This document shows, piece after piece, positions 6,008-25,181 of a DNA stretch of 64,000 bases. Below the pieces are notes generated by a model. That model worked only from the letters and a program-made list of their open reading frames with translations, made no database searches and had not been told where the DNA came from. Every line of letters begins with the position of its first letter. The first letter of the stretch is position 1. The DNA is from Candidatus Latescibacterota bacterium (GTDB lineage Bacteria; Latescibacterota; UBA2968; UBA8231): positions 2,304,001 through 2,368,000 of the forward strand of contig OZ244561.1 in NCBI GenBank assembly GCA_965217585.1, read 5' to 3'. The translations under genes and the position numbers were made by a program.

Positions 6008-7164
6008 AAGTCACGAGGATCGAGACCCTGCGGGCCAGCCGCTTTATCTACGTGCGGGTGCACACTGACGAGGGCATAGCGGGGGTCGGCGAGTTGCACC
6101 CCGCAAGCGGTACCAGCGGCACGCCGTTTGCGCCCATTGCGGCGGTGGAGTACTGCGCCGAGTACCTAATCGGCAAGGATCCCCTCCACATTGAGCGCAA
6201 CTGGCAGCATCTGTTCCGCCGCTGCGTGTTTCGCGGCGGCGCAGACACTATGGCTGCGATCGGTGCAATCGACATGGCGCTGTGGGACATCAAGGGCAAG
6301 GTAGCCGAGTTACCCGTTCATTCGCTGCTGGGCGGTCCCACGCGGGAGCGCGTACGCGTGTACTCCCATCTGCAGGGCGACTCCCCGGCGGAGTTGGCCG
6401 AAGACGCCCGGCGCATGGTCGAGGGCGGCTACACAGCCCTGCGTCTCTATCCGTTCGGCGCCTTTGCGTCCGGCGAGGGCACAAGCCTAGAGCAACTGTC
6501 GTTTCGCGGCATGGCTAAGCACGCCGCGGCTACCTTGCAGGCGGTGCGCGACGCCGTGGGCGACGAGATCGATCTCATGGTCGATGTAGTCAACCGCCTC
6601 ACGCCGCCGGAGGCCATTGAGGTGGCCAAGGCGCTTGAGCCCTATGGCCTGTTTTTTTTCGAGGACCCTATCGAGCCTGAAAACATGGATGCGTGGGGCC
6701 ATGTCGCGGCCAATATGCCGGTGCCAGTGGCCATGGGCGAGCGGCTCTACACCACCTACCAGTTCCGCGAGTTGCTGGCCCACAAGGGGGCTTCGTACCT
6801 CCGGCCGGACTTGTCGCTCGCCGGTGGAATCACGAATTGCAAAAAGATCGCGGCGCTGGCCGAAGCAAGTTACGTGGGCGTTGCCCCGCACAACCCGCTG
6901 AGTTGCGTCCTGACCGCGGCGTGCGTGCAACTCGACGCCGCCATCCACAACGTCGCCATTCAGGAGTACCCGAGGGACGAGTACGATGCCCCGAAACGAG
7001 ATCTGGTCGAGATGCCACTGCGGTGCGAGGGCGGTTTCCTGATTGTTCCGCAGACTCCCGGCATTGGGATTGAACTGAACGACGAAGCGTTCCCGCACTA
7101 TCCGCCTGTGCCCTATACCCGGGCGCCGGTGATTGGACCCGACGGCGCCCTGCGAGACTACTGA
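6004..7164 (+). CDS. Mandelate racemase/enolase superfamily acid-sugar dehydratase (galactonate dehydratase-like)
   Basis: AIDMALWDIKGK, LLGG, FFEDP, GERL, APHNP, PGIGIE; ATGA overlap with the upstream gene. Confidence 0.88.
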   Translation: MKVTRIETLRASRFIYVRVHTDEGIAGVGELHPASGTSGTPFAPIAAVEYCAEYLIGKDPLHIERNWQHLFRRCVFRGGADTMAAIGAIDMALWDIKGKVAELPVHSLLGGPTRERVRVYSHLQGDSPAELAEDARRMVEGGYTALRLYPFGAFASGEGTSLEQLSFRGMAKHAAATLQAVRDAVGDEIDLMVDVVNRLTPPEAIEVAKALEPYGLFFFEDPIEPENMDAWGHVAANMPVPVAMGERLYTTYQFRELLAHKGASYLRPDLSLAGGITNCKKIAALAEASYVGVAPHNPLSCVLTAACVQLDAAIHNVAIQEYPRDEYDAPKRDLVEMPLRCEGGFLIVPQTPGIGIELNDEAFPHYPPVPYTRAPVIGPDGALRDY

Positions 7165-10914: not shown

Positions 10915-12903
10915 ATGGCTCGTCAAAAAAAGAAAAGTACCAAGCAGAAAAAGCCCAGCGATCCTTTCTCAAAACTCACTTGGGAAGACCTAGAGGAATG
11001 GGCGGAAAACCGCATCGTCGCCCGGGGACGCTCCTATCAGAGAAGCGGAGCCGTTGGGGACTTGGGACGCGCCGAGGACGGGGCGTTGGTAGCCTGGGTA
11101 ATGGGAACCCGGCGCTATGCCACCCGGGTGCGCATTGAGGGAAGGAAAAACCTAGAATCCGAATGCACCTGTCCCTACTGGACGACCTGCAAACACGCGG
11201 TGGCGGTGGTGCTGGAATACTTGGAAAGCATCAAGACAGAGAGTGCTATTGGCCAAGTTGAGGAGGACGATCCGCGCCTGCTGGAACTAGAGGCGATAGG
11301 GGAAGAGTCCGACGAGTTGGAGGAATTCGATGAGTACGAGGACGGCTTGGAAGAGGCGCGTTCCGGACGCTCGAAATCCAAAAAGTCCAAAACGGCATCC
11401 CTGCGTCCGTACCTCCAAGAGCAGACCAAAGCCGAACTCGTGGCGCTGGTGATTGAACTCGCGGACGCGCACGACGAGGTGCGCCAATTGCTCGCCGACC
11501 GCCGCGACTTGACCTCGGGCCAGACGCAAAAAATTCTCCAGATGATCCGCCGCGAGCTCCGCGACTTAGAAGAGCCGACATGGGGCGACTACGACTACGC
11601 TCCCCCTGCGATTAACACGGATCGCCTCAAGGCGGCCCTCAAAGGGCTGATAGAAGCCGGACAGGCCGACGCAGCGGTGCAACTGGGGCCGGAGCTATTG
11701 GCCGCGGCCAACCAAGTGCTACAGTACGATCGCGAGGGCGAATCCGACGCGGCGTTCTCCGACTGCCTCGATGTCCTTTTTCAGGCCCTAGATACGGCTT
11801 CCCTGTCGCCAGCGGACCAGATAGAATGGGCCATAGATATGGAGCAGGCCGACGAATACAGTCTGTGCGACGCTGGCTTGGCCCACCTCTGGAAAAGGCC
11901 CTACGCCGAAAGCGATTGGTCCGCGGTGAGTGATCGGCTAGCGCAGCGTCTCGAGACCTTCAAGGCTACTGAGGAAGAGTTGCGCTACAAGCGGGACCGA
12001 CTGGCCGACTGGCTGATTCGCGCCTTGGAAAAGGCCGGCCGCCAAGACGAGATCATCCCGCTGTGCGAGCGCGAAGCACCCATCACTTTTAGCTATGAAC
12101 GCTTGGTGGATCGCCTGCTGGCCAAACGCCGCTGGGAAGAGGCCCGCCGCTGGTGCCATCAGGGGATGGAGGCGGTTCACTCCCATTATCCGGGCATTGA
12201 AGCGAGGTTGCGCCATCAGCTACAGACGATTAACGAGCAAAGCGGCGACCCGCTCGCCGGGTTGGCCATTCAGGCCGAGGAGTTTTTTGTTGCGCCTGGT
12301 CTGGCCGGTTTTCAGGATTTGTGCAAAGCCGCTCGCAAGGTGCGCCTCGGCAAGGGCGTCGATGCTTGGGCGCGGCACTATCTGGAAACTGGTCGGCGGC
12401 CCGGTGTCGGTCGGAAACGCAAGAGTGATCCGAAGGTAGCTTGGCCCCTGCCGGCCTCTGAAGTCGAGGTGCGTACTCATCACCAAGCAGCGGAGGCACC
12501 TATGACCGGGACACTAATCCGGTTGGCTATTGCCGAGAAGAAGCCGGATGAGGTGCTCAAGTGGTACGACTATGCCAGCCGCAAAAAGGGTGGGTTGGGA
12601 CTGTCTGACTTCCTCGTCAACCCCACCGAGGTGGCCGAGGCCATCAAGTCGGCCCACCCGGATCGGGCGATAGCCATTTGGCAGGAAACTGCGGAAAGAC
12701 AGATCGCCCAGGTGCAGGTGAGTGGGTACGAGGCCGCGGTTCCCTCTTTGCGAAACATGAAAAATGCGCTCACGCGGACCGGTCGCAAGCAAGAATGGGA
12801 AGCGTATCTGGCTTCCTTGCGAGAGCAGAATAACCGCCGGCCGCGGTGTCTGGAGGTGCTGAGCCGGTTGGAGGGAGGACGTCGGCGAATTATCGACACG
12901 TAA
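10915..12903 (+). CDS. SWIM zinc-finger protein with helical C-terminus
   Basis: ARGRSYQ..G.V, V.GTRRY, SWIM motif CTCPYWTTCKH, acidic linker, helical/TPR-like remainder. Confidence 0.85.
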   Translation: MARQKKKSTKQKKPSDPFSKLTWEDLEEWAENRIVARGRSYQRSGAVGDLGRAEDGALVAWVMGTRRYATRVRIEGRKNLESECTCPYWTTCKHAVAVVLEYLESIKTESAIGQVEEDDPRLLELEAIGEESDELEEFDEYEDGLEEARSGRSKSKKSKTASLRPYLQEQTKAELVALVIELADAHDEVRQLLADRRDLTSGQTQKILQMIRRELRDLEEPTWGDYDYAPPAINTDRLKAALKGLIEAGQADAAVQLGPELLAAANQVLQYDREGESDAAFSDCLDVLFQALDTASLSPADQIEWAIDMEQADEYSLCDAGLAHLWKRPYAESDWSAVSDRLAQRLETFKATEEELRYKRDRLADWLIRALEKAGRQDEIIPLCEREAPITFSYERLVDRLLAKRRWEEARRWCHQGMEAVHSHYPGIEARLRHQLQTINEQSGDPLAGLAIQAEEFFVAPGLAGFQDLCKAARKVRLGKGVDAWARHYLETGRRPGVGRKRKSDPKVAWPLPASEVEVRTHHQAAEAPMTGTLIRLAIAEKKPDEVLKWYDYASRKKGGLGLSDFLVNPTEVAEAIKSAHPDRAIAIWQETAERQIAQVQVSGYEAAVPSLRNMKNALTRTGRKQEWEAYLASLREQNNRRPRCLEVLSRLEGGRRRIIDT

Positions 12904-13117: not shown

Positions 13118-13755
13118 CTGCGACTCTACAAGCGTGCTGGTCAGCCGGGCCTGCGGGTACGCCGTCCCAGACGACTCCACTTTGAGACGCATCAAGCCCT
13201 CCGAGAATTGGAAAAGAGCCTCAAGACCTTGGAGCGGCACCACCAAATCCATAGCCGTCGGCGGCGCTCTCCCCGGATGTTCATCGACGACCCTAAGCCC
13301 TTCCTCGACAATATGGATCAGCGCCTATCGCGGCTGGAAGAGATCGACGTCAAATAAAAGAACCGGGCCATGTGCGCCGTTGTCGGTCCAGGCCATGACT
13401 TGATAGCCTGTGAAAAGTGTATATGTTGTCGTCAAATTATTGTGAAAAATGGCGATACATAGTCAAGTTCGCGGAAAGAGAACCAGAGCCTACACAGTCA
13501 ACGACTTCGCTCATTCTCTTGACGGGCGCGGTGGCGTTCCTTTCCTTGCGGACGAAACGTGCGGTGGCGATGGAGTTGATGATGGAACAGCTTTAGGGAC
13601 AGGATACACCTCGGCAAGTAACCTTGAAATCGCGCCTAGTCATGCGGGAATCCTGCGGGGCGATAAAATGTTTACTCATGGACCCGCGACCGCGGTCTGA
13701 TAGAAGGACCAACGGGTAGAGAGACATTTTTGAGCGGTCAATAGAGGACGAAATC

Positions 13756-14889
13756 ATGTCAGGTGATCTAATTAGCGCATTGGGGCGCTGGATTGACAAT
13801 TCGGCGTTCCGAACTGATGCAGTCAAGTTTTTGTCTTTATCTCAAGATGCCGTTGACAAGCTCGCGGCTCTCATCGAGAAGCACGCAACGTTTGACGTCC
13901 CGGCGAGCGAAATCGCTGAATTCGAGAGCGCTTGTGGAAGCGATGGGAATGGACGTGGCATATTGGCAGCCGCACAATTGATCCGTTCATCCGTTCGACG
14001 TATTGACCAAGATGAACGAAGAGAGAACTTGATCAATTTTGCTGCGTTGGTAGGAGTCGAACCATTCGTACCTGAACACTTTTCGGCGTTCTTCTCGTCC
14101 CGACCGGAATTGGACAACGAGGAACTCAGGACCAGCGCCATTGCGATTGCTCCAACTCTAGCAGACGTCAGCCTAAATAGCGACCTCCGCGTTGTGTCGG
14201 ACCCAAATGTGGAGTGCAGGCTTGTTCCCGTTGTCTTTGCCCGGTTGGAGTTCGACGAACCCGTAGCCGGACAACGAGCGCTTTTCATCCAGATCACGGA
14301 AGACTCGCTCGCAGAACTGGAGCAGGAGATCAAAAAAACGAAGGAAATTTTGCAAATCGTTCGTAGTCGATTTGGATCGGATATACTTGCCCGAGAGGCG
14401 GGTTCCTATGTGATGAACTCCGCAGTGAAAGCAGTTTCTCAGACGGCGGAAGGTCCCTATGTGACGGACTCCATGGGGTCGATTGATTGGTCGTTATTCA
14501 AGATACATTTCTTTTCCGCTCCTGAAAGGAAAGCGAGGTTGACTGGCCCGGTCCAGTTCATCAATAAACTCTTGGAAACTTGGCACCTGAACTCTGAAGA
14601 CGCCGTGCCATTGCTCGGGCATGAATCGTCGGAAAAGTCATATGTCTCAGACCTGTTGAATGGACGCACTGCTCTCAAGGGACGCGACACCAAGGACCGA
14701 ATCGTATATCTCTTTCACATCCGAAAAACGTTGTCCGCGCTGTTTCTGAGTGAGGACGACGAGAACAAGTGGCTCCGTGAGCAGCAGGCGACGTTGGGCG
14801 GACAGACGCCGATGCAACGGTTGCTGGAGGGATCGATGGAAAACCTGCTGCTCGTGAAGGAATTCGTTGAAGAGGCGGCGGGCAAGTAG
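13756..14889 (+). CDS. Two-part protein: N-terminal helical plus COMM-like domain, C-terminal Xre/MbcA/ParS-type antitoxin domain
   Basis: C-terminus (LFHIRKTLSALF...ENKWLRE...LGGQTPMQRLLEGSMENLLLVKEFV) fits the MbcA/ParS toxin-binding domain and lies directly upstream of a RES gene. The N-terminal domain call is by pattern only. Possible internal start at 14410/14413. Confidence 0.7.
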   Translation: MSGDLISALGRWIDNSAFRTDAVKFLSLSQDAVDKLAALIEKHATFDVPASEIAEFESACGSDGNGRGILAAAQLIRSSVRRIDQDERRENLINFAALVGVEPFVPEHFSAFFSSRPELDNEELRTSAIAIAPTLADVSLNSDLRVVSDPNVECRLVPVVFARLEFDEPVAGQRALFIQITEDSLAELEQEIKKTKEILQIVRSRFGSDILAREAGSYVMNSAVKAVSQTAEGPYVTDSMGSIDWSLFKIHFFSAPERKARLTGPVQFINKLLETWHLNSEDAVPLLGHESSEKSYVSDLLNGRTALKGRDTKDRIVYLFHIRKTLSALFLSEDDENKWLREQQATLGGQTPMQRLLEGSMENLLLVKEFVEEAAGK

Positions 14890-14891
14890 AA

Positions 14892-15476
14892 GTGCTTGAA
14901 TCGATTCCGATCGAGTCTCGGCAGGTCGCGGTATACCGACTAGCGAGCTATCGCGAGGACGAAGAGTTTATGCATGAACTCGGATTGGATCAGGAGGGCC
15001 GAGACGAGCTCATGGATCTGCTGGAATCGAAAAACGCTAAGGATTCGCTTGAAGCGCTTCTCGATGAACCGTTCAAACGTAAGCCTAGACTCGATAGGAC
15101 AGGATATGGTGTCTCGCGCTTTTCGGATGGTTCGTTCCGCGTGTTTTACTGCTCCACGGAAGCCAATACGGCGGAAGCTGAGGCCCGGCACTATCGTTCC
15201 AAACTTGTCCGTGACCTACCCACACGGTACATGCGTTTTGCGTGCGATTTCGACGGGCGCGTCAAGGACCTGCGGCCGAAGAAAGATGAATGGCCGGAGC
15301 TGACATACGACACCGACTACGGGTTTTGTAACGAACTAGGATCCGAGGCGGTGAAGACGGGTCTGGACGGACTGCTGGCTCTCTCGGTGCGACGGGTGGG
15401 GGGAACGAACATTCCGGTATTTAAGCGGTCTGCGATCAGCAACCCCCGCGATCTTGAGGAGGTAACCGACCTGTGA
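14892..15476 (+). CDS. RES-domain toxin (NAD+ phosphorylase family)
   Basis: SRFSDGSFRVFYCS...TAEAE (R and E) and GLLALSVRR.GG.N..VF (S). Confidence 0.85.
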   Translation: MLESIPIESRQVAVYRLASYREDEEFMHELGLDQEGRDELMDLLESKNAKDSLEALLDEPFKRKPRLDRTGYGVSRFSDGSFRVFYCSTEANTAEAEARHYRSKLVRDLPTRYMRFACDFDGRVKDLRPKKDEWPELTYDTDYGFCNELGSEAVKTGLDGLLALSVRRVGGTNIPVFKRSAISNPRDLEEVTDL

Positions 15477-15656
15477 CACTTCAACTTTCTCGTCAATGGG
15501 GATTGTCGTCTGCAACGAGCGCGATGGCGGGCGTTCTGCAGGTGTCCCGGGTTAAGCTTCGCAACGGGACCGGGACGAGTGGGTGGTTGAACTACGTCCA
15601 TGTCGAGCCATAGGGCTGATCCCGGACGGTCTCGCCCCAGCGAGCGTATGACGAGC

Positions 15657-15694
15657 AAGGCGTCGTCGCGGAGATTCGCGTCGTCGCCTTTTTA
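15657..15694 (+). terminator. Putative intrinsic terminator at a convergent junction
   Basis: Imperfect hairpin aaggcg..cgcg gagatt cgcg..cgcctt followed by a T run. Confidence 0.45.
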
Positions 15695-17665
15695 TTTGAT
15701 CAGAACCATCTTCTGCATCCGAGAGACCTGGTCAGCCCCTGTCAGCCTGCACAGGTAGACACCCGAAGCCCGATCCGAGGCATCCCACGTCGCGGAGTGA
15801 CTCCCGCGGCTCCTGGTCTCGCTGAACAGCGTCTCCACCAGCTGCCCCGTGAGAGTGTGGACCGACAGCGTCACGTGCTGCAACTCCGAGAGCGTGAAGT
15901 GGATCGTGGTGACCGGATTGAAGGGATTCGGGTAGATGCTATCGAGCCTCGTCTTCTGGGGTGCCACCTGGTCCGAGGCAGCGCTGGTTATCGATGTCGC
16001 CACGTGGCCGTCGACCTCTATGGGCCAGCCCTCCAGCAACTCGTGCCAGGGTGCGACGGGCAGATTGCCGTCTTGGTCGCGGGCATACCCGAACATGCGC
16101 CACCTTCCCCCGAGGGCCTGATCCGACACCCTGAATCGCGCTGTGAGGTGAATGCGGTCGCGGCCGTCGGTTCCCCAGGCCGTCTCTGTGCCGTCGACGT
16201 ACAGGCCCTCGATCCCCGTGCGGTCCGTCCAATCCGCTGAACCCTCCCCCTCTCTCGAGTACACGGACCCGCTGGCACCTCGAATGAAGTAGCTGTCGCC
16301 GGCTGAGAACTCCTCCAGAGCGATGCGATCGCCGGTGGCGGAGGCGAGGCGCCTGGAGTTGATGAGCTGGACGCCGATCTCGGCGATGTCATTCGCTCCC
16401 TGAGGGTCGACGGCCAGCGCGTGCAGGTCGTACCAGGTGTTGGTCTCGAGGGTATCGACGCGCTCCTCTGCGCCGGGCAGGGTGACATACATGTGTCCAA
16501 CGAAAGGACTGGGGCTCGAGTCCGGGAAGGGATGGCGGGGCGCAGAACTCAGGGCGCTGTTGTACTTGAAGAGCCGGCCGTCGACGAACAGGTTGTAGGC
16601 CACGAACTTCGTCTCCCCCTCGTAGTCGTAGTCGTCCACCCACAACAGCCGGCGCCACGGATCCGTGGCGTTCACGTTGTCCCCTATGTAGATGTTGTGG
16701 AGCACGGCTTCGGCGATGTGATTGCCGTTGTGCGTTGGATCGCCGAAGTCCAGCATCCGGGAGTACCCGCCGACCGAGTAGTCTCCGCAGCCGGGATCGA
16801 AGTAGTTCCCGGTGATCTCCAGGCTGCCGCTCTTGAAGGCCATGGGCCGGGTGCGCTCGAAGATGTTGTCGCGGACCACGGCTCGAATCGCGTACCCGCC
16901 CTGGGGATGGGTATCGACGCAGGCCTGCCATTGAACTAGGTCGTTGTCGTGGAAGTAGTTGTTCTCCACGGTGAACCGGGTCTGCGGGCTGTTGGAGGCA
17001 ATGGAATGGCGGTTGAAGGTGAATTCGTTGCGCGCTATGGCGACCTCGGAACCGCCGGTGGCCATGGTCGTCCCCGTAATGCTGATCCCATAGCCGAAGC
17101 CATTGCGATAGTTCTCGTGCAGGTAGCTCCCGGTGACCACGCCCCCGCGGGAGTTCATGAAGTCGATGCCCTTGCGGAAGCGGGTGATCTCGCAGTTGCC
17201 GATCTCGAGCTGGTCGTGCCCGACAACGGCGATGCCGTCTCCGGTTCCCGCCTCGTGGGTAATGGCCCCCACGAGCTTGAGGCTCTCGAAGGTCACGGCG
17301 TCGCTCGCCACGTGGAACAGGTCGAGGTCGCTGTCTTCGGTGTAGCACACGGAGGGAGGAGAGTCCCAGTACGGCGGGTCATTCGGCTCTCCCGGCTCGA
17401 CCTCGCCCACGTCCACGAGTTCGGCCGCGCCGAGAAGGGTGATGCTCCTGTCGATGACGACCGTCTCGGTGAACAGGTACTCTCCCCCTATAAACACCAG
17501 TGTGTCCCCTGCGGAGGCTCTGGACACGGCCTCCTGAACCGCCGCGCTGGTGAAGCCCTCCACCTGCAGGCCCTGGGCGGGAGCCACGAGGGCTGGCAGA
17601 AAAGCCACTAGCCACGCACGGACGGCGGCTGTCTTTGCCCTGGTCTTCTCGTTCCTCGTCTCCAT
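15692..17665 (-). CDS. Secreted parallel beta-helix (pectin-lyase-like) protein with C-terminal FlgD-Ig/T9SS-type-A-like domain
   Basis: Signal-like N-terminus; VQEAV..A..GDT; Asn-ladder repeats (ENNYFHDN, RDNIFE, TGNYF); C-terminal YPNPFNP..TI.F...G.LV.TL...W...ASGVY. Confidence 0.8.
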   Translation of the reverse strand: METRNEKTRAKTAAVRAWLVAFLPALVAPAQGLQVEGFTSAAVQEAVSRASAGDTLVFIGGEYLFTETVVIDRSITLLGAAELVDVGEVEPGEPNDPPYWDSPPSVCYTEDSDLDLFHVASDAVTFESLKLVGAITHEAGTGDGIAVVGHDQLEIGNCEITRFRKGIDFMNSRGGVVTGSYLHENYRNGFGYGISITGTTMATGGSEVAIARNEFTFNRHSIASNSPQTRFTVENNYFHDNDLVQWQACVDTHPQGGYAIRAVVRDNIFERTRPMAFKSGSLEITGNYFDPGCGDYSVGGYSRMLDFGDPTHNGNHIAEAVLHNIYIGDNVNATDPWRRLLWVDDYDYEGETKFVAYNLFVDGRLFKYNSALSSAPRHPFPDSSPSPFVGHMYVTLPGAEERVDTLETNTWYDLHALAVDPQGANDIAEIGVQLINSRRLASATGDRIALEEFSAGDSYFIRGASGSVYSREGEGSADWTDRTGIEGLYVDGTETAWGTDGRDRIHLTARFRVSDQALGGRWRMFGYARDQDGNLPVAPWHELLEGWPIEVDGHVATSITSAASDQVAPQKTRLDSIYPNPFNPVTTIHFTLSELQHVTLSVHTLTGQLVETLFSETRSRGSHSATWDASDRASGVYLCRLTGADQVSRMQKMVLIK

Positions 17666-18052: not shown

Positions 18053-18598
18053 ATGATAACGAAAATTAACCAAACGTCCCTCGCGCTTGTGCGTGGGGAT
18101 ATTACACGGGAACAAGTCGATGCGATCGCCAACGCTGCCAACGAGCAACTCATGGGCGGCGGTGGCGTCGATGGTGCCATTCACCGCGCTGGGGGACCGG
18201 CCATAATGGCGGAATGCAGCGCAATCCGCGCCGAGCAGGGCGGTTGTCCCACGGGTCAAGCCGTAATCACGACGGGGGGCAACCTTCCCGCCAAGCACGT
18301 CATCCACACTGTGGGGCCGATCTGGCGGGGCGGAACCGCTGGTGAACCCGAACTTCTTGCTAGCTGTTATCGGGAAAGTTTAAGGCTTGCAGTGGAGCAC
18401 GGCATCAAGACGATTGCCTTTCCATCCATTAGCACCGGCGTGTACGGTTATCCGGTCGCGCAGGCGGCGGTCATCGCGCTCCATGCGGTGAAGCAATTCC
18501 TCGAAGCACACGATGGTCTCGATGAAGTGCGTTTCGTCCTCTTCGACGATGCGACGTACGGCGCTTACGAGAACGCCCTTGCGAAAATGAACGTATAA
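18053..18598 (+). CDS. ymdB: Macro-domain O-acetyl-ADP-ribose deacetylase
   Basis: GDIT, NAAN..LMGGGGVDGAIHRAGG, VIHTVGP, AFPSISTGVYGYP. Confidence 0.92.
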   Translation: MITKINQTSLALVRGDITREQVDAIANAANEQLMGGGGVDGAIHRAGGPAIMAECSAIRAEQGGCPTGQAVITTGGNLPAKHVIHTVGPIWRGGTAGEPELLASCYRESLRLAVEHGIKTIAFPSISTGVYGYPVAQAAVIALHAVKQFLEAHDGLDEVRFVLFDDATYGAYENALAKMNV

Positions 18599-23814: not shown

Positions 23815-24269
23815 TCATTGAGTGGTTTTGATCGCCCACAGCAGCGTCCATGCGAGCAGGCCGATGAGCAAATGCAAGCGGGGCGGGTGGGTCAGGTGGG
23901 TATCCTGCAAATTAAACCCTTTGGACTTCAAAAAGCCAAACGTCGTCTCAATAGCCCAGCGTTTTCCATACAGAGCCAGCACCTGCTTGAGGTCGGTTCG
24001 GTTGGTGATCAGCAGGAGGTGCTCTCCCTTGGCCGGACGATGACAGACTAGATGAAGGGTCAACCCGTTATAGAGGGTGGTGCCGGCGTTCCTCGGTATT
24101 GGAGTTGCCCGACTTTTGTAACGACTGATATTCCAATGGAATAGACACGCCTTGGTAGACCAGTCCTCAACACAATTAGGTTCTGATCGGTGCGCCCGAA
24201 CTTCCAATGGGTCCGATCCAAGACCAACACCTGAGGCTGGCCGGGTGCAACCAGCTGAGAGCGGATCAA
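23815..24269 (-). mobile_element. Degraded IS4-family (IS10/ISAba1-like) transposase remnant
   Basis: LVLDRTHWKFG in one frame and LLITN...YGKRWAIETTFGFLKSKGFNLQDTHLT in another; far shorter than a full transposase. Confidence 0.8.
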
Positions 24270-24285: not shown

Positions 24286-24747
24286 CTACCGCACTAGCCG
24301 CTCGTCAAGCAGGTACGGTTCAACCGCCGCGATTTCCACCTCTTTCATATCCGAATGCGCTGGATTGATCAGCACATTGTAGTCGCCTTCGACTACTGCT
24401 GAGGGCACGCGCAGCAGCAAGGACCGCCTTTCCTCCACCCAACGGGTGCCGATCTCCTCTAGCTCGACAGGGGCCGGATGTCGCCGCCAGTTGTTTGGCA
24501 ACATCTCCTCGGTAATAGTCTCTGCTGACGCATCATCGGGCACCGCAATAATCGCGATGCTCAGATTTTTCGGTACCCCCACCAAAGGCACATGCACTAG
24601 GTATTCCACCGTGGCCAATGCCCGACTAGGCGAGGTGTAAAGCAAGCCCACCCCGACGCGATTCCACCGACCACCGTTGGCACGGGCACCGACCCCCGAT
24701 AGATCGTTTATGTAGTGGGTCTTGGCGATGCGGAAAAGCCGCATCAA
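24286..24747 (-). CDS. RES-domain toxin
   Basis: GARANGGRWN, LYTS..RALA..E, LRVPSAVV...NVLINP.H. Confidence 0.92.
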   Translation of the reverse strand: MMRLFRIAKTHYINDLSGVGARANGGRWNRVGVGLLYTSPSRALATVEYLVHVPLVGVPKNLSIAIIAVPDDASAETITEEMLPNNWRRHPAPVELEEIGTRWVEERRSLLLRVPSAVVEGDYNVLINPAHSDMKEVEIAAVEPYLLDERLVR

Positions 24748-25181
24748 GCGAATACTCCGTGCTCTATCCGGCCCAGCTCATCCAAAACGATATCTGCGCC
24801 GAAACGCGAGTTGAGCAATTCGAGCGGCACTTTGTCGCCTATTGCCACGCAGGGTTGTTTGAGCCAATACAGGAAATGATCGCGGTCCTCAAAGACAGCT
24901 ACCCCTCTGGCAGCGACGCTGGCGATCTGGAGAACCTGCTCGGAGACGGCCCGACTGAATGGTTTGGCGTCGCCGTGTCGCTGCACCGTACGTTCGCTAA
25001 TGGGTAGTAGGCGAATGAGCTGTCCCGGCGATATAGCGAGGTATTCCGCTAGTTTTATCAACTCTGACCGCGCAATGCCTCGATTGCTCATTTCAATTAG
25101 GTCGAAGCCATTGTGCAGCCTATGGCGCACCCCGAGAATCTGCGCCGTTTCCCCTAAGGGTGCCGTCGTGGCAGTGGTCAT
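24744..25181 (-). CDS. Xre/ParS-type antitoxin
   Basis: HTH ISERTVQR; WLKQP..AIGDKVPLELL...G...V..ELGRIEHG; 4-nt overlap with the RES gene. Confidence 0.92.
   Translation of the reverse strand: MTTATTAPLGETAQILGVRHRLHNGFDLIEMSNRGIARSELIKLAEYLAISPGQLIRLLPISERTVQRHGDAKPFSRAVSEQVLQIASVAARGVAVFEDRDHFLYWLKQPCVAIGDKVPLELLNSRFGADIVLDELGRIEHGVFA

Follow-up and report, generated by a model that had tools for sequence, protein, structure and literature searches.

In tripartite type II toxin-antitoxin systems (toxin-antitoxin-chaperone, TAC; HipBST), a third protein encoded in the operon modulates a two-part core. The RES-Xre type COG5654–COG5642 is treated as a two-gene module (Makarova et al. 2009). 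NatT, the toxin of the NatR-NatT (NatRT) pair of P. aeruginosa, is an NAD+/NADP+ phosphorylase whose Flap (residues 26–66) clamps the antitoxin NatR; its conserved residues include R82, Y93, S184 and N193, with E104, Y162 and R186 at phosphate sites, and the authors ask which auxiliary factors control activation (PMC11535050). COMMD-like proteins are built of an HN domain together with a COMM domain and assemble through an intertwined COMM dimer into a homo-octameric or decameric ring; their genes have type VI secretion system (T6SS)-like neighbours in Myxococcota, and their prokaryotic function is unclear (Liu et al. 2026, PMC13392464); a 2026 preprint likewise speaks of 'unknown functions' of the bacterial COMMD-like proteins. 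The locus described here, in which a COMMD-like protein, a NatR-type antitoxin and a RES toxin are encoded one after the other, lies at positions 13756–15476 (forward strand) of a stretch of 64,000 nucleotides (nt), called the window, from a Candidatus Latescibacterota bacterium (assembly GCA_965217585.1, contig OZ244561.1, positions 2,304,001–2,368,000). It is considered fairly probable that the locus is a three-gene NatRT-like cassette with a COMMD-like accessory scaffold or regulator, fused here by a deletion of 194 nt. Relatives' loci are labelled L, database protein clusters P, public sequencing runs X and genomes G; aa, amino acids; ORF, open reading frame; AF2, AlphaFold2. The features of the cassette were as follows:

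13756–14889, forward strand: fused ORF, 377 aa plus stop; the COMMD-like protein (gene 1) minus its last 4 residues, in frame with a NatR-type antitoxin (gene 2) minus most of its N-terminal extension (ORF list; alignment with L002).
13756–14148, forward strand: predicted HN-type all-helical domain, aa 1–131 (AF2; Foldseek; A3 profile; Pfam COMM_HN at E ≤ 1 in 4/52 members of the family).
14149–14394, forward strand: predicted COMM-type domain, aa 132–213, three strands and a long helix (AF2; Foldseek; profile; invariant columns).
14394/14395, no strand: deletion junction; 194 nt absent relative to L002.
14395–14532, forward strand: remnant of the N-terminal extension of the antitoxin, probably a disordered linker, aa 214–259 (AF2 of the stand-alone antitoxin; sequence).
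14533–14886, forward strand: predicted antitoxin core of the NatR/MbcA/ParS type, aa 260–377; a helical part resembling a helix-turn-helix (HTH) and a C-terminal toxin-binding domain (AF2; Foldseek; PF09722).
14892–15476, forward strand: RES-domain toxin (gene 3), NatT-like, 194 aa, GTG start (PF08808; profile match to NatT; invariant residues).
14949–15101, forward strand: Flap-like insertion in the RES toxin, acidic and helical, about aa 20–70 (alignment to the NatT Flap; kept in L002, L004 and L006).

A 377-aa antitoxin ORF upstream of a RES gene had been reported in a preliminary description of this DNA, and both ORFs (13756–14889 and 14892–15476) were confirmed, with PF09722 and RES as their Pfam families. 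A Shine-Dalgarno-like GAGGA motif stands 7 nt 5′ of ATG 13756, and the stop of the antitoxin is separated from the GTG of the RES gene by 2 nt. The GC content was 0.50–0.55 over 13500–15250 and 0.59–0.66 in both flanks; the cassette is thus AT-richer than its surroundings, as had been noted before. Scans of the window and of L002 for sigma-70 promoters and terminators gave counts within shuffle expectation.

Origin of the fused ORF: A search of 5.8 billion protein clusters with the 377-aa query gave 118 matches; 27 were stand-alone proteins of ~217 aa that covered only the first 55–58% of the query (identity up to 92%), 89 were antitoxin-type proteins that covered only the last 30–55%, two were partial fusions (P0010 and P0015), and a full-length fusion like that of the window was found among none of the 118. 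The closest stand-alone COMMD-like proteins end 4 residues past the point where the window ORF enters the antitoxin. The window DNA was collinear with that of L002 (90% protein identity), except that exactly 194 nt were absent between 14394 and 14395; with them the COMMD-like gene lost its last 4 codons and its stop, and the antitoxin lost its overlapping start and ~61 codons of its N-terminal extension. No inverted repeat was found in the inter-domain stretch of L002. The 377-aa fusion is accordingly read, from these alignments, as a strain-specific deletion allele and not as the native architecture.

The junction was also found in reads. A contig of 194 nt from run X1 spans it with 45 + 149 nt, without any difference from the window and at a depth of 10.8, and the fused form is therefore a real allele and no assembly slip; since X1 may be the source sample of the window, this contig is not counted as independent support. 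Run X1 also held an unfused variant (222 nt at the junction, depth 5.5), and runs X5 and X8, from two other studies, held only unfused forms (222 and 232 nt). In P0010, gene 1 is cut after the first strand, and in P0015 after ~88 residues; both are independent in-frame deletions over the same gene 1/antitoxin boundary. Only in-frame deletions keep the antitoxin translated, so that three independent fusions are seen (window, P0010 and P0015); boundary deletions with loss of antitoxin translation would free the toxin, and survival of the in-frame ones is thus expected with no need for a benefit of fusion. As P0010 and P0015 lack the COMM domain, this domain is dispensable for holding the toxin in check. 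Other variants at this locus: in X5, the RES gene and its downstream sequence (14834–15700) were identical to the window, and the contig next to it, with the genes for the COMMD-like protein and the antitoxin, differed (37 differences over 13736–14395, 17 over 14400–14835, spacer present); this pattern is suggestive of mosaic alleles, or of recombination close to where antitoxin and toxin genes meet.

COMMD-like protein (gene 1): The AF2 model of the COMMD-like part (aa 1–213) was built on 28 sequences (mean predicted local distance difference test, pLDDT, 76); eight helices to aa 131 with block pLDDT 78–93; strands 135–149, 152–166 and a short one 176–178, helix 182–212, pLDDT only 42–68. Three strands and a helix after a helical N-domain had been proposed from the sequence, and the model agrees with that layout. 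Foldseek against the PDB gave 13 matches at E ≤ 1e-3, the 11 listed being all COMMD entries; the best was 8f2r_E (human COMMD subunit of the Commander ring, E 3.4e-6, 205 columns), and 9q6a_A, a solved bacterial 'octameric COMMD-like protein MBK5214510', was matched with E 8.8e-6. Alignments to full-length COMMD chains extended over 187–213 columns; the COMM-only structures 6bp6_A and 8esd_F gave TMt 0.58 and 0.61.

The close-family profile A1 collected 135 representative clusters at E ≤ 1e-3, mostly of 200–230 aa and many matched end to end; A1 alone gave nothing significant against PDB sequences. Profile A3, made of 52 of the 135 clusters, matched 9za1_A (PDB 'COMM domain-containing protein', E 9.3e-7, positions 17–195), COMMD4 (E 4.1e-5), COMMD10 and COMMD9, the HN regions of COMMD4 and COMMD10 included; positions 136–214 matched the isolated COMM domain of COMMD9 (E 3.2e-3), and the isolated HN-domain entries 9zmz_A, 9zmy_A and 9zn0_A were matched as well. 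The commonest Pfam families among the 52 members at E ≤ 1 were COMM_domain (9/52, best 1.1e-5) and COMM_HN (4/52). The window protein itself gave no match to PF07258 at E ≤ 1, Pfam, NCBIfam and PADLOC profiles gave none in the first ~300 residues of the 377-aa protein, and two longer members of the family stayed below the PF07258 cut-off (21.8 and 17.7 bits vs 22.4); no extra fused domains were found in the longer members. The models and profiles support the reading of aa 1–213 as COMMD-like, with a helical domain of the HN type followed by one of the COMM type. The COMM/COMMD likeness put forward in the preliminary description was thus borne out by structure comparison, with COMMD entries at the top, and by the family profile; the Pfam part of that check failed for the window protein itself.

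The most conserved motifs of the family lie in the COMM-type domain (D143-L-R145-V, V157-P-V159, F166-D-E168 and A171-G-Q173); 27 columns are invariant over 28 gene 1 sequences, which argues for purifying selection. The gene is usually present in a single copy per genome. Side observations on the family: the Protein Atlas gave unnamed clusters at 0.92–0.93 and, at 0.82, a cluster of which 23% of the members carry COMM_domain, to be taken as a lead only; L008 (Dechloromonas) was rejected as a relative, the match being antisense inside a TetR-family gene.

Antitoxin (gene 2): PF09722 (Xre_MbcA_ParS_C) was matched marginally at aa 327–371 of the 377-aa ORF (E 1.9e-5, 25.0 bits vs cut-off 24.5) and is precomputed on most of the antitoxin homologues; NCBIfam NF049845 gave only 20.7 bits against 90, and PF20432 (Xre-like HTH) gave no match in the window antitoxin. 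In the AF2 model of the stand-alone antitoxin, residues 1–40 were mostly below pLDDT 50, and the helical core was at pLDDT 93–97. Foldseek with this model gave NatR first (8qnl_A/B, matched over its full length, E 2e-4, TMt 0.71–0.77), then VPA0769, MbcA (6fkg_C) and P. putida Xre; antitoxin profile A5 against the PDB gave only P. putida Xre (E 0.11), and phmmer of the antitoxin and of the RES protein against the PDB gave 0 matches.

In 4 of 5 related loci, the antitoxin frame stays open between the end of gene 1 and the core, a distance of 43 to >115 codons. The antitoxin start overlaps the gene 1 stop as ATGA in L002, as GTGA in L006 and by 14 nt in L003, and follows the stop by 2–5 nt in L004; L007 is decayed. 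Database antitoxins of close relatives start exactly at the gene 1 stop. From the open frame, the overlapping or abutting starts and the database entries, the apparent spacer is read as a variable N-terminal extension of the antitoxin, translationally coupled to gene 1; its sequence is not conserved between lineages. The remnant in the window holds an in-frame GTG 14410 and ATG 14413 with GAGAGG 5′ of them, a possible internal start of the antitoxin. The same antitoxin core was also seen fused to other N-terminal parts, in P0041 (375 aa), P0115 (581 aa) and P0055 (349 aa), which hold HD-type PF12917/PF13023, a 440-aa region of no named family and PF03683; judged by these sequences, the antitoxin subfamily seems prone to N-terminal additions.

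RES toxin (gene 3): PF08808 was matched in the 194-aa ORF with E 2.3e-18 (67.2 bits vs cut-off 23.2). A profile of the four cassette toxins against the PDB matched only P. aeruginosa NatT (8qnl_C, E 4.6e-4), the helical insertion included, and its positions 35–75 were aligned with the Flap segment of NatT. Invariant in the four toxins are R76, Y86, E97, Y143, S165, R167 and N173, which stand opposite NatT R82, Y93, E104, Y162, S184, R186 and N193 under an assumed offset of 13 between the numbering of the paper and that of the chain, consistent at all seven positions. By homology and by analogy with NatT, depletion of NAD+/NADP+ by phosphorolysis is the most likely activity of the cassette toxin; that it is a RES protein of the NAD-degrading kind had been proposed before, and the Pfam match, the NatT profile match and the conserved residues agree. 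In RNA library X16, the antitoxin/RES boundary (14740–14935) and the RES 3′ end were covered by contigs without difference from the window; as DNA can occur in RNA libraries, they give only a weak hint of expression. Runs X1 and X5 gave one contig each in which 14896 is joined to 15384, with 7 other letters in place of 487 nt of the RES gene (depths of 14.8 and 27.6; aligned at 85% likeness with a short side); their origin may be another organism or a variant that has lost RES.

Linkage and distribution: The order COMMD-like gene, antitoxin, RES toxin was found at all six loci with downstream sequence (window, L002, L003, L004, L006 and L007), L005 being left out of the count because of a contig edge. 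Five genomic contexts are represented; the flanks are unrelated, except for the window and L002, which are of one lineage. The relatives' metagenome-assembled genomes are labelled Chloroflexi, Spirochaetia and Vicinamibacterales, and all three proteins of the cassette diverge to a similar degree (50–62% identity). The neighbours are ordinary genes or genes of no known kind; none of the defence or mobile type was found beside the cassette in L003, L004 and L006. Neither the protein query, run on 24 genomes of the same genus, nor the family profile, run on 30, recovered the cassette; on the basis of this absence and the low GC content, it is presumed to have been horizontally acquired. Searches of viral contigs, of phage and plasmid records and of BFVD structures found no relatives of the COMMD-like part; neither window protein matched any PADLOC-DB 2.0 family at E ≤ 1, and PADLOC on the neighbours of the divergent loci gave only a weak ZorC-like match (21.7 bits).

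Directly after the distant COMMD-like genes (14–40% identity to that of the window; L009, L021, L022 and L023) come, in 4/4 cases, two small ORFs that stand close together and contain hydrophobic 19-aa windows; neither a known family nor mutual similarity was found for these ORFs:

L009, 3–1132: small ORFs of 72 and 220 aa.
L021, 2812–4693: small ORFs of 235 and 135 aa.
L022, 3942–5551: small ORFs of 99 and 220 aa.
L023, 3387–4721: small ORFs of 77 and 144 aa.

These may represent a second kind of COMMD-linked three-gene module. The ORF after the small pair of L009 was taken, by eye only, for a type I restriction-modification methyltransferase and is unannotated.

Proposed mode of action: The RES toxin would break down NAD+/NADP+, as in NatRT and MbcTA. 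The C-terminal helix of the antitoxin would plug the active site of the toxin, and its HTH part would repress the operon, by analogy with NatR. Since the gene 1 stop overlaps or abuts the antitoxin start, the COMMD-like protein and the antitoxin would be made together; the former would assemble into dimers or rings through its COMM domain, in the manner of solved bacterial relatives, and as a scaffold or regulator it would gather antitoxin-toxin units and tune the threshold or timing of toxin release, not being needed for neutralisation itself. Gene content, folds, the deletion, the allele in reads, the kept gene order, the coupled stops and starts and the conserved catalytic residues were observed; the activity of the toxin, the oligomeric state and any physical contacts of the COMMD-like protein, and its role as an accessory scaffold or regulator are inferred.

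Several observations weigh against this reading. The COMM-domain part of the AF2 model has low confidence (pLDDT 42–68), and global TM-scores to COMMD chains were only 0.28–0.42; low values for a monomer are no more than compatible with an intertwined COMM dimer or ring, and the modest TM-scores are attributed to a different hinge between the two domains. In L003 the RES gene is split over two frames (6186–6757), and in L007 (5001–6397) gene 1 is broken into two frames and RES was matched by its C-terminal part alone, which may be decay or assembly indel errors. COMMD-like matches are rare (2/168, 2/401 and 2/401 genomes in three phylum samples), so that the independent cassette lineages are few, with about five contexts. 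Genomes G368 and G553 (one lineage) hold a full-length Flap-RES toxin and its antitoxin with no COMMD-like gene in the genome, the upstream gene being unrelated and divergently oriented; the pair thus works without a COMMD-like gene, and the extension is not specific to COMMD-linked cassettes. The distant COMMD-like genes adjoin Xre-RES in 0/4 cases; linkage of the N-domain homologues to RES-Xre pairs, whose absence the preliminary description had named as a refutation, held for the close subfamily (6/6) and failed for these. The coupling seen between the COMMD-like protein and the antitoxin or toxin is genetic only; a predicted complex of two COMMD-like copies and the antitoxin scored 0.00, was run without controls and is neutral on binding. 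The link between the COMMD-like gene and the toxin-antitoxin pair is modular and general in neither direction.

A wider reading, in which COMMD-like rings serve toxic effector modules in general, as their accessory adaptors or regulators, is drawn from the Xre-RES cassettes, the small membrane-type pairs at 4/4 loci and the published T6SS-like clusters of Myxococcota, and is regarded as rather unlikely. If it were true, the ancestral job of the COMMD fold would have been toxin handling in conflict systems, with later recruitment into the eukaryotic Commander complex.

A chaperone-addiction of the TAC type, in which the COMMD-like ring would bind the antitoxin by its N-terminal extension and stabilise it, with occupation or disruption of the ring leading to loss of the antitoxin and activation of the toxin, is thought improbable. 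The extension does lie right behind the COMMD-like gene, to which it is translationally coupled, and is predicted to be disordered, and all three natural deletions remove it together with part or the end of gene 1, as an addiction region of this kind would permit; a similar basic extension is, however, found on antitoxins of the same subfamily in genomes without a COMMD-like gene, and the lack of conservation of the extensions between lineages also counts against it.

A small chance is likewise given to the COMMD-like gene being a co-transferred neighbour without functional tie, with the fusions as erosion of a selfish cassette. Three independent deletions at the same boundary, the broken frames in L003 and L007, and the Xre-RES pair working alone in G368 and G553 would fit such hitch-hiking; as a random deletion has a 1/3 chance of being in frame and out-of-frame ones would be lethal, in-frame survival needs no benefit. 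This is opposed by the order and close spacing kept in five unrelated contexts at only 50–58% protein identity, by exact 4-nt stop/start overlaps kept in two lineages and by the 27 invariant columns of gene 1 under purifying selection.

The native fusion of the preliminary description, a selected design in which an oligomeric sensor-antitoxin would release an NAD+-depleting toxin on phage infection (abortive infection), is very unlikely in spite of the real COMM/COMMD likeness, the greater depth of the fused allele in X1 (10.8 vs 5.5), two intact frames with the catalytic residues kept and the known depletion of NAD(P)+ by RES toxins (PMC11535050), since the two genes are separate in all relatives and the window differs by one 194-nt deletion, comparable full-length fusions number 0/118, the X5 and X8 studies gave only unfused forms, PADLOC found no match, defence or mobile neighbours were absent in L003, L004 and L006, and no copies occurred in the viral contigs, phages and plasmids searched.

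The preferred reading, a NatRT-like cassette with a COMMD-like accessory protein, would give the first testable functional lead for bacterial COMMD-like proteins. As a portable three-gene cassette in which the COMMD-like protein stands in a fixed translational relation to a well-understood kind of toxin-antitoxin system, it offers a simple genetic and biochemical handle; it provides a candidate accessory factor for NatRT-like systems and, in its split, fused, COMM-deleted and COMMD-free versions, natural controls of one module.

Surroundings of the cassette: a 662-aa SWIM zinc-finger protein (10915–12903, forward strand) and a 657-aa beta-helix protein (15692–17665, reverse strand) that ends in a C-terminal secretion sorting domain (Por_Secre_tail) flank it in the window. 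The beta-helix protein also adjoins the cassette in L002 with 90–95% identity; the L002 contig is labelled as another phylum, and this neighbour therefore raises a question about the L002 bin label. A macro-domain protein (PF01661, E 8.2e-50; 18053–18598, forward strand) lies 2.6 kb downstream of the putatively NAD-degrading toxin, relatives of which make ADP-ribose-1''-phosphate; the neighbourhood is probably coincidental, since it is not conserved at other loci. None of the SWIM, beta-helix and macro-domain neighbours is kept beside the cassette outside the window's own lineage. An element of ~94 nt (13570–13663) just 5′ of the cassette has two more copies in the genome (87% identity); its contig depth was very high in metagenome runs, other strains carry 201–213 extra nt at 13663/13664, and neither an Rfam or tRNA match nor an unusual fold was found for it.

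The window holds a second RES-Xre pair, whose 145-aa antitoxin at 24744 had been named as canonical beforehand and was found to be so, with a RES partner alongside:

24744–25181, reverse strand: canonical antitoxin, 145 aa (PF09722, E 1.2e-13; Xre-like HTH, E 9.4e-9).
24286–24747, reverse strand: canonical RES toxin, 153 aa (RES, E 3.2e-24).

An ORF adjoining this pair (23815–24207, reverse strand) was taken, by eye only, for a transposase fragment and is unannotated. Sequence comparison of the two RES-Xre pairs of the window gave no detectable similarity.

Comparison with known systems: Literature searches (COMM/COMMD with toxin-antitoxin, RES and bacterial; tripartite RES-Xre) gave no description of such a cassette, which appears to be an undescribed variant of the RES-Xre systems. 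With the canonical two-gene RES-Xre systems (COG5654–COG5642; MbcTA; P. putida Xre-RES; the pair at 24286–25181) it shares the two Pfam families and the gene order; unlike the cassette, the pair at 24286–25181 lacks a Flap, an extension and a third gene. The third component differs from those of TAC and HipBST: in place of a SecB-like chaperone or split kinase domain there is a COMMD-like protein, encoded upstream. The eukaryotic COMMD1–10 proteins of the Commander complex (PDB 8F2R, 8P0W) gave the best full-length structural matches, and the profile reaches COMMD4, COMMD9 and COMMD10; gene 1 differs from them by an identity of 11–17%, by being a single gene and not one of ten paralogues, and by the lack of Commander partners in bacteria. 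The COMMD-like proteins of Liu et al. 2026 are like gene 1 in their length of ~215 aa, in the helical HN domain followed by a COMM domain with a helix besides its three strands, and in the usually single copy; the model of gene 1 has 8 HN helices vs 6 in theirs, and its neighbours are a toxin-antitoxin pair vs the T6SS-like genes of Myxococcota (PMC13392464). The main text of that paper uses none of the words toxin, antitoxin, operon and DUF2384, and its supplements might bear on the point. A further close system is NatRT (PA1029/PA1030; PDB 8QNL, 8QNQ; PMC11535050), which the cassette resembles in the Flap-bearing RES toxin, the active-site and phosphate-site residues, the NatR fold and the antitoxin directly upstream; it differs in that the similarity is weak (profile E 4.6e-4), in an N-terminal extension of 43–115 aa on the antitoxin and in a third, upstream COMMD-like gene, which in the window is fused to the antitoxin gene.

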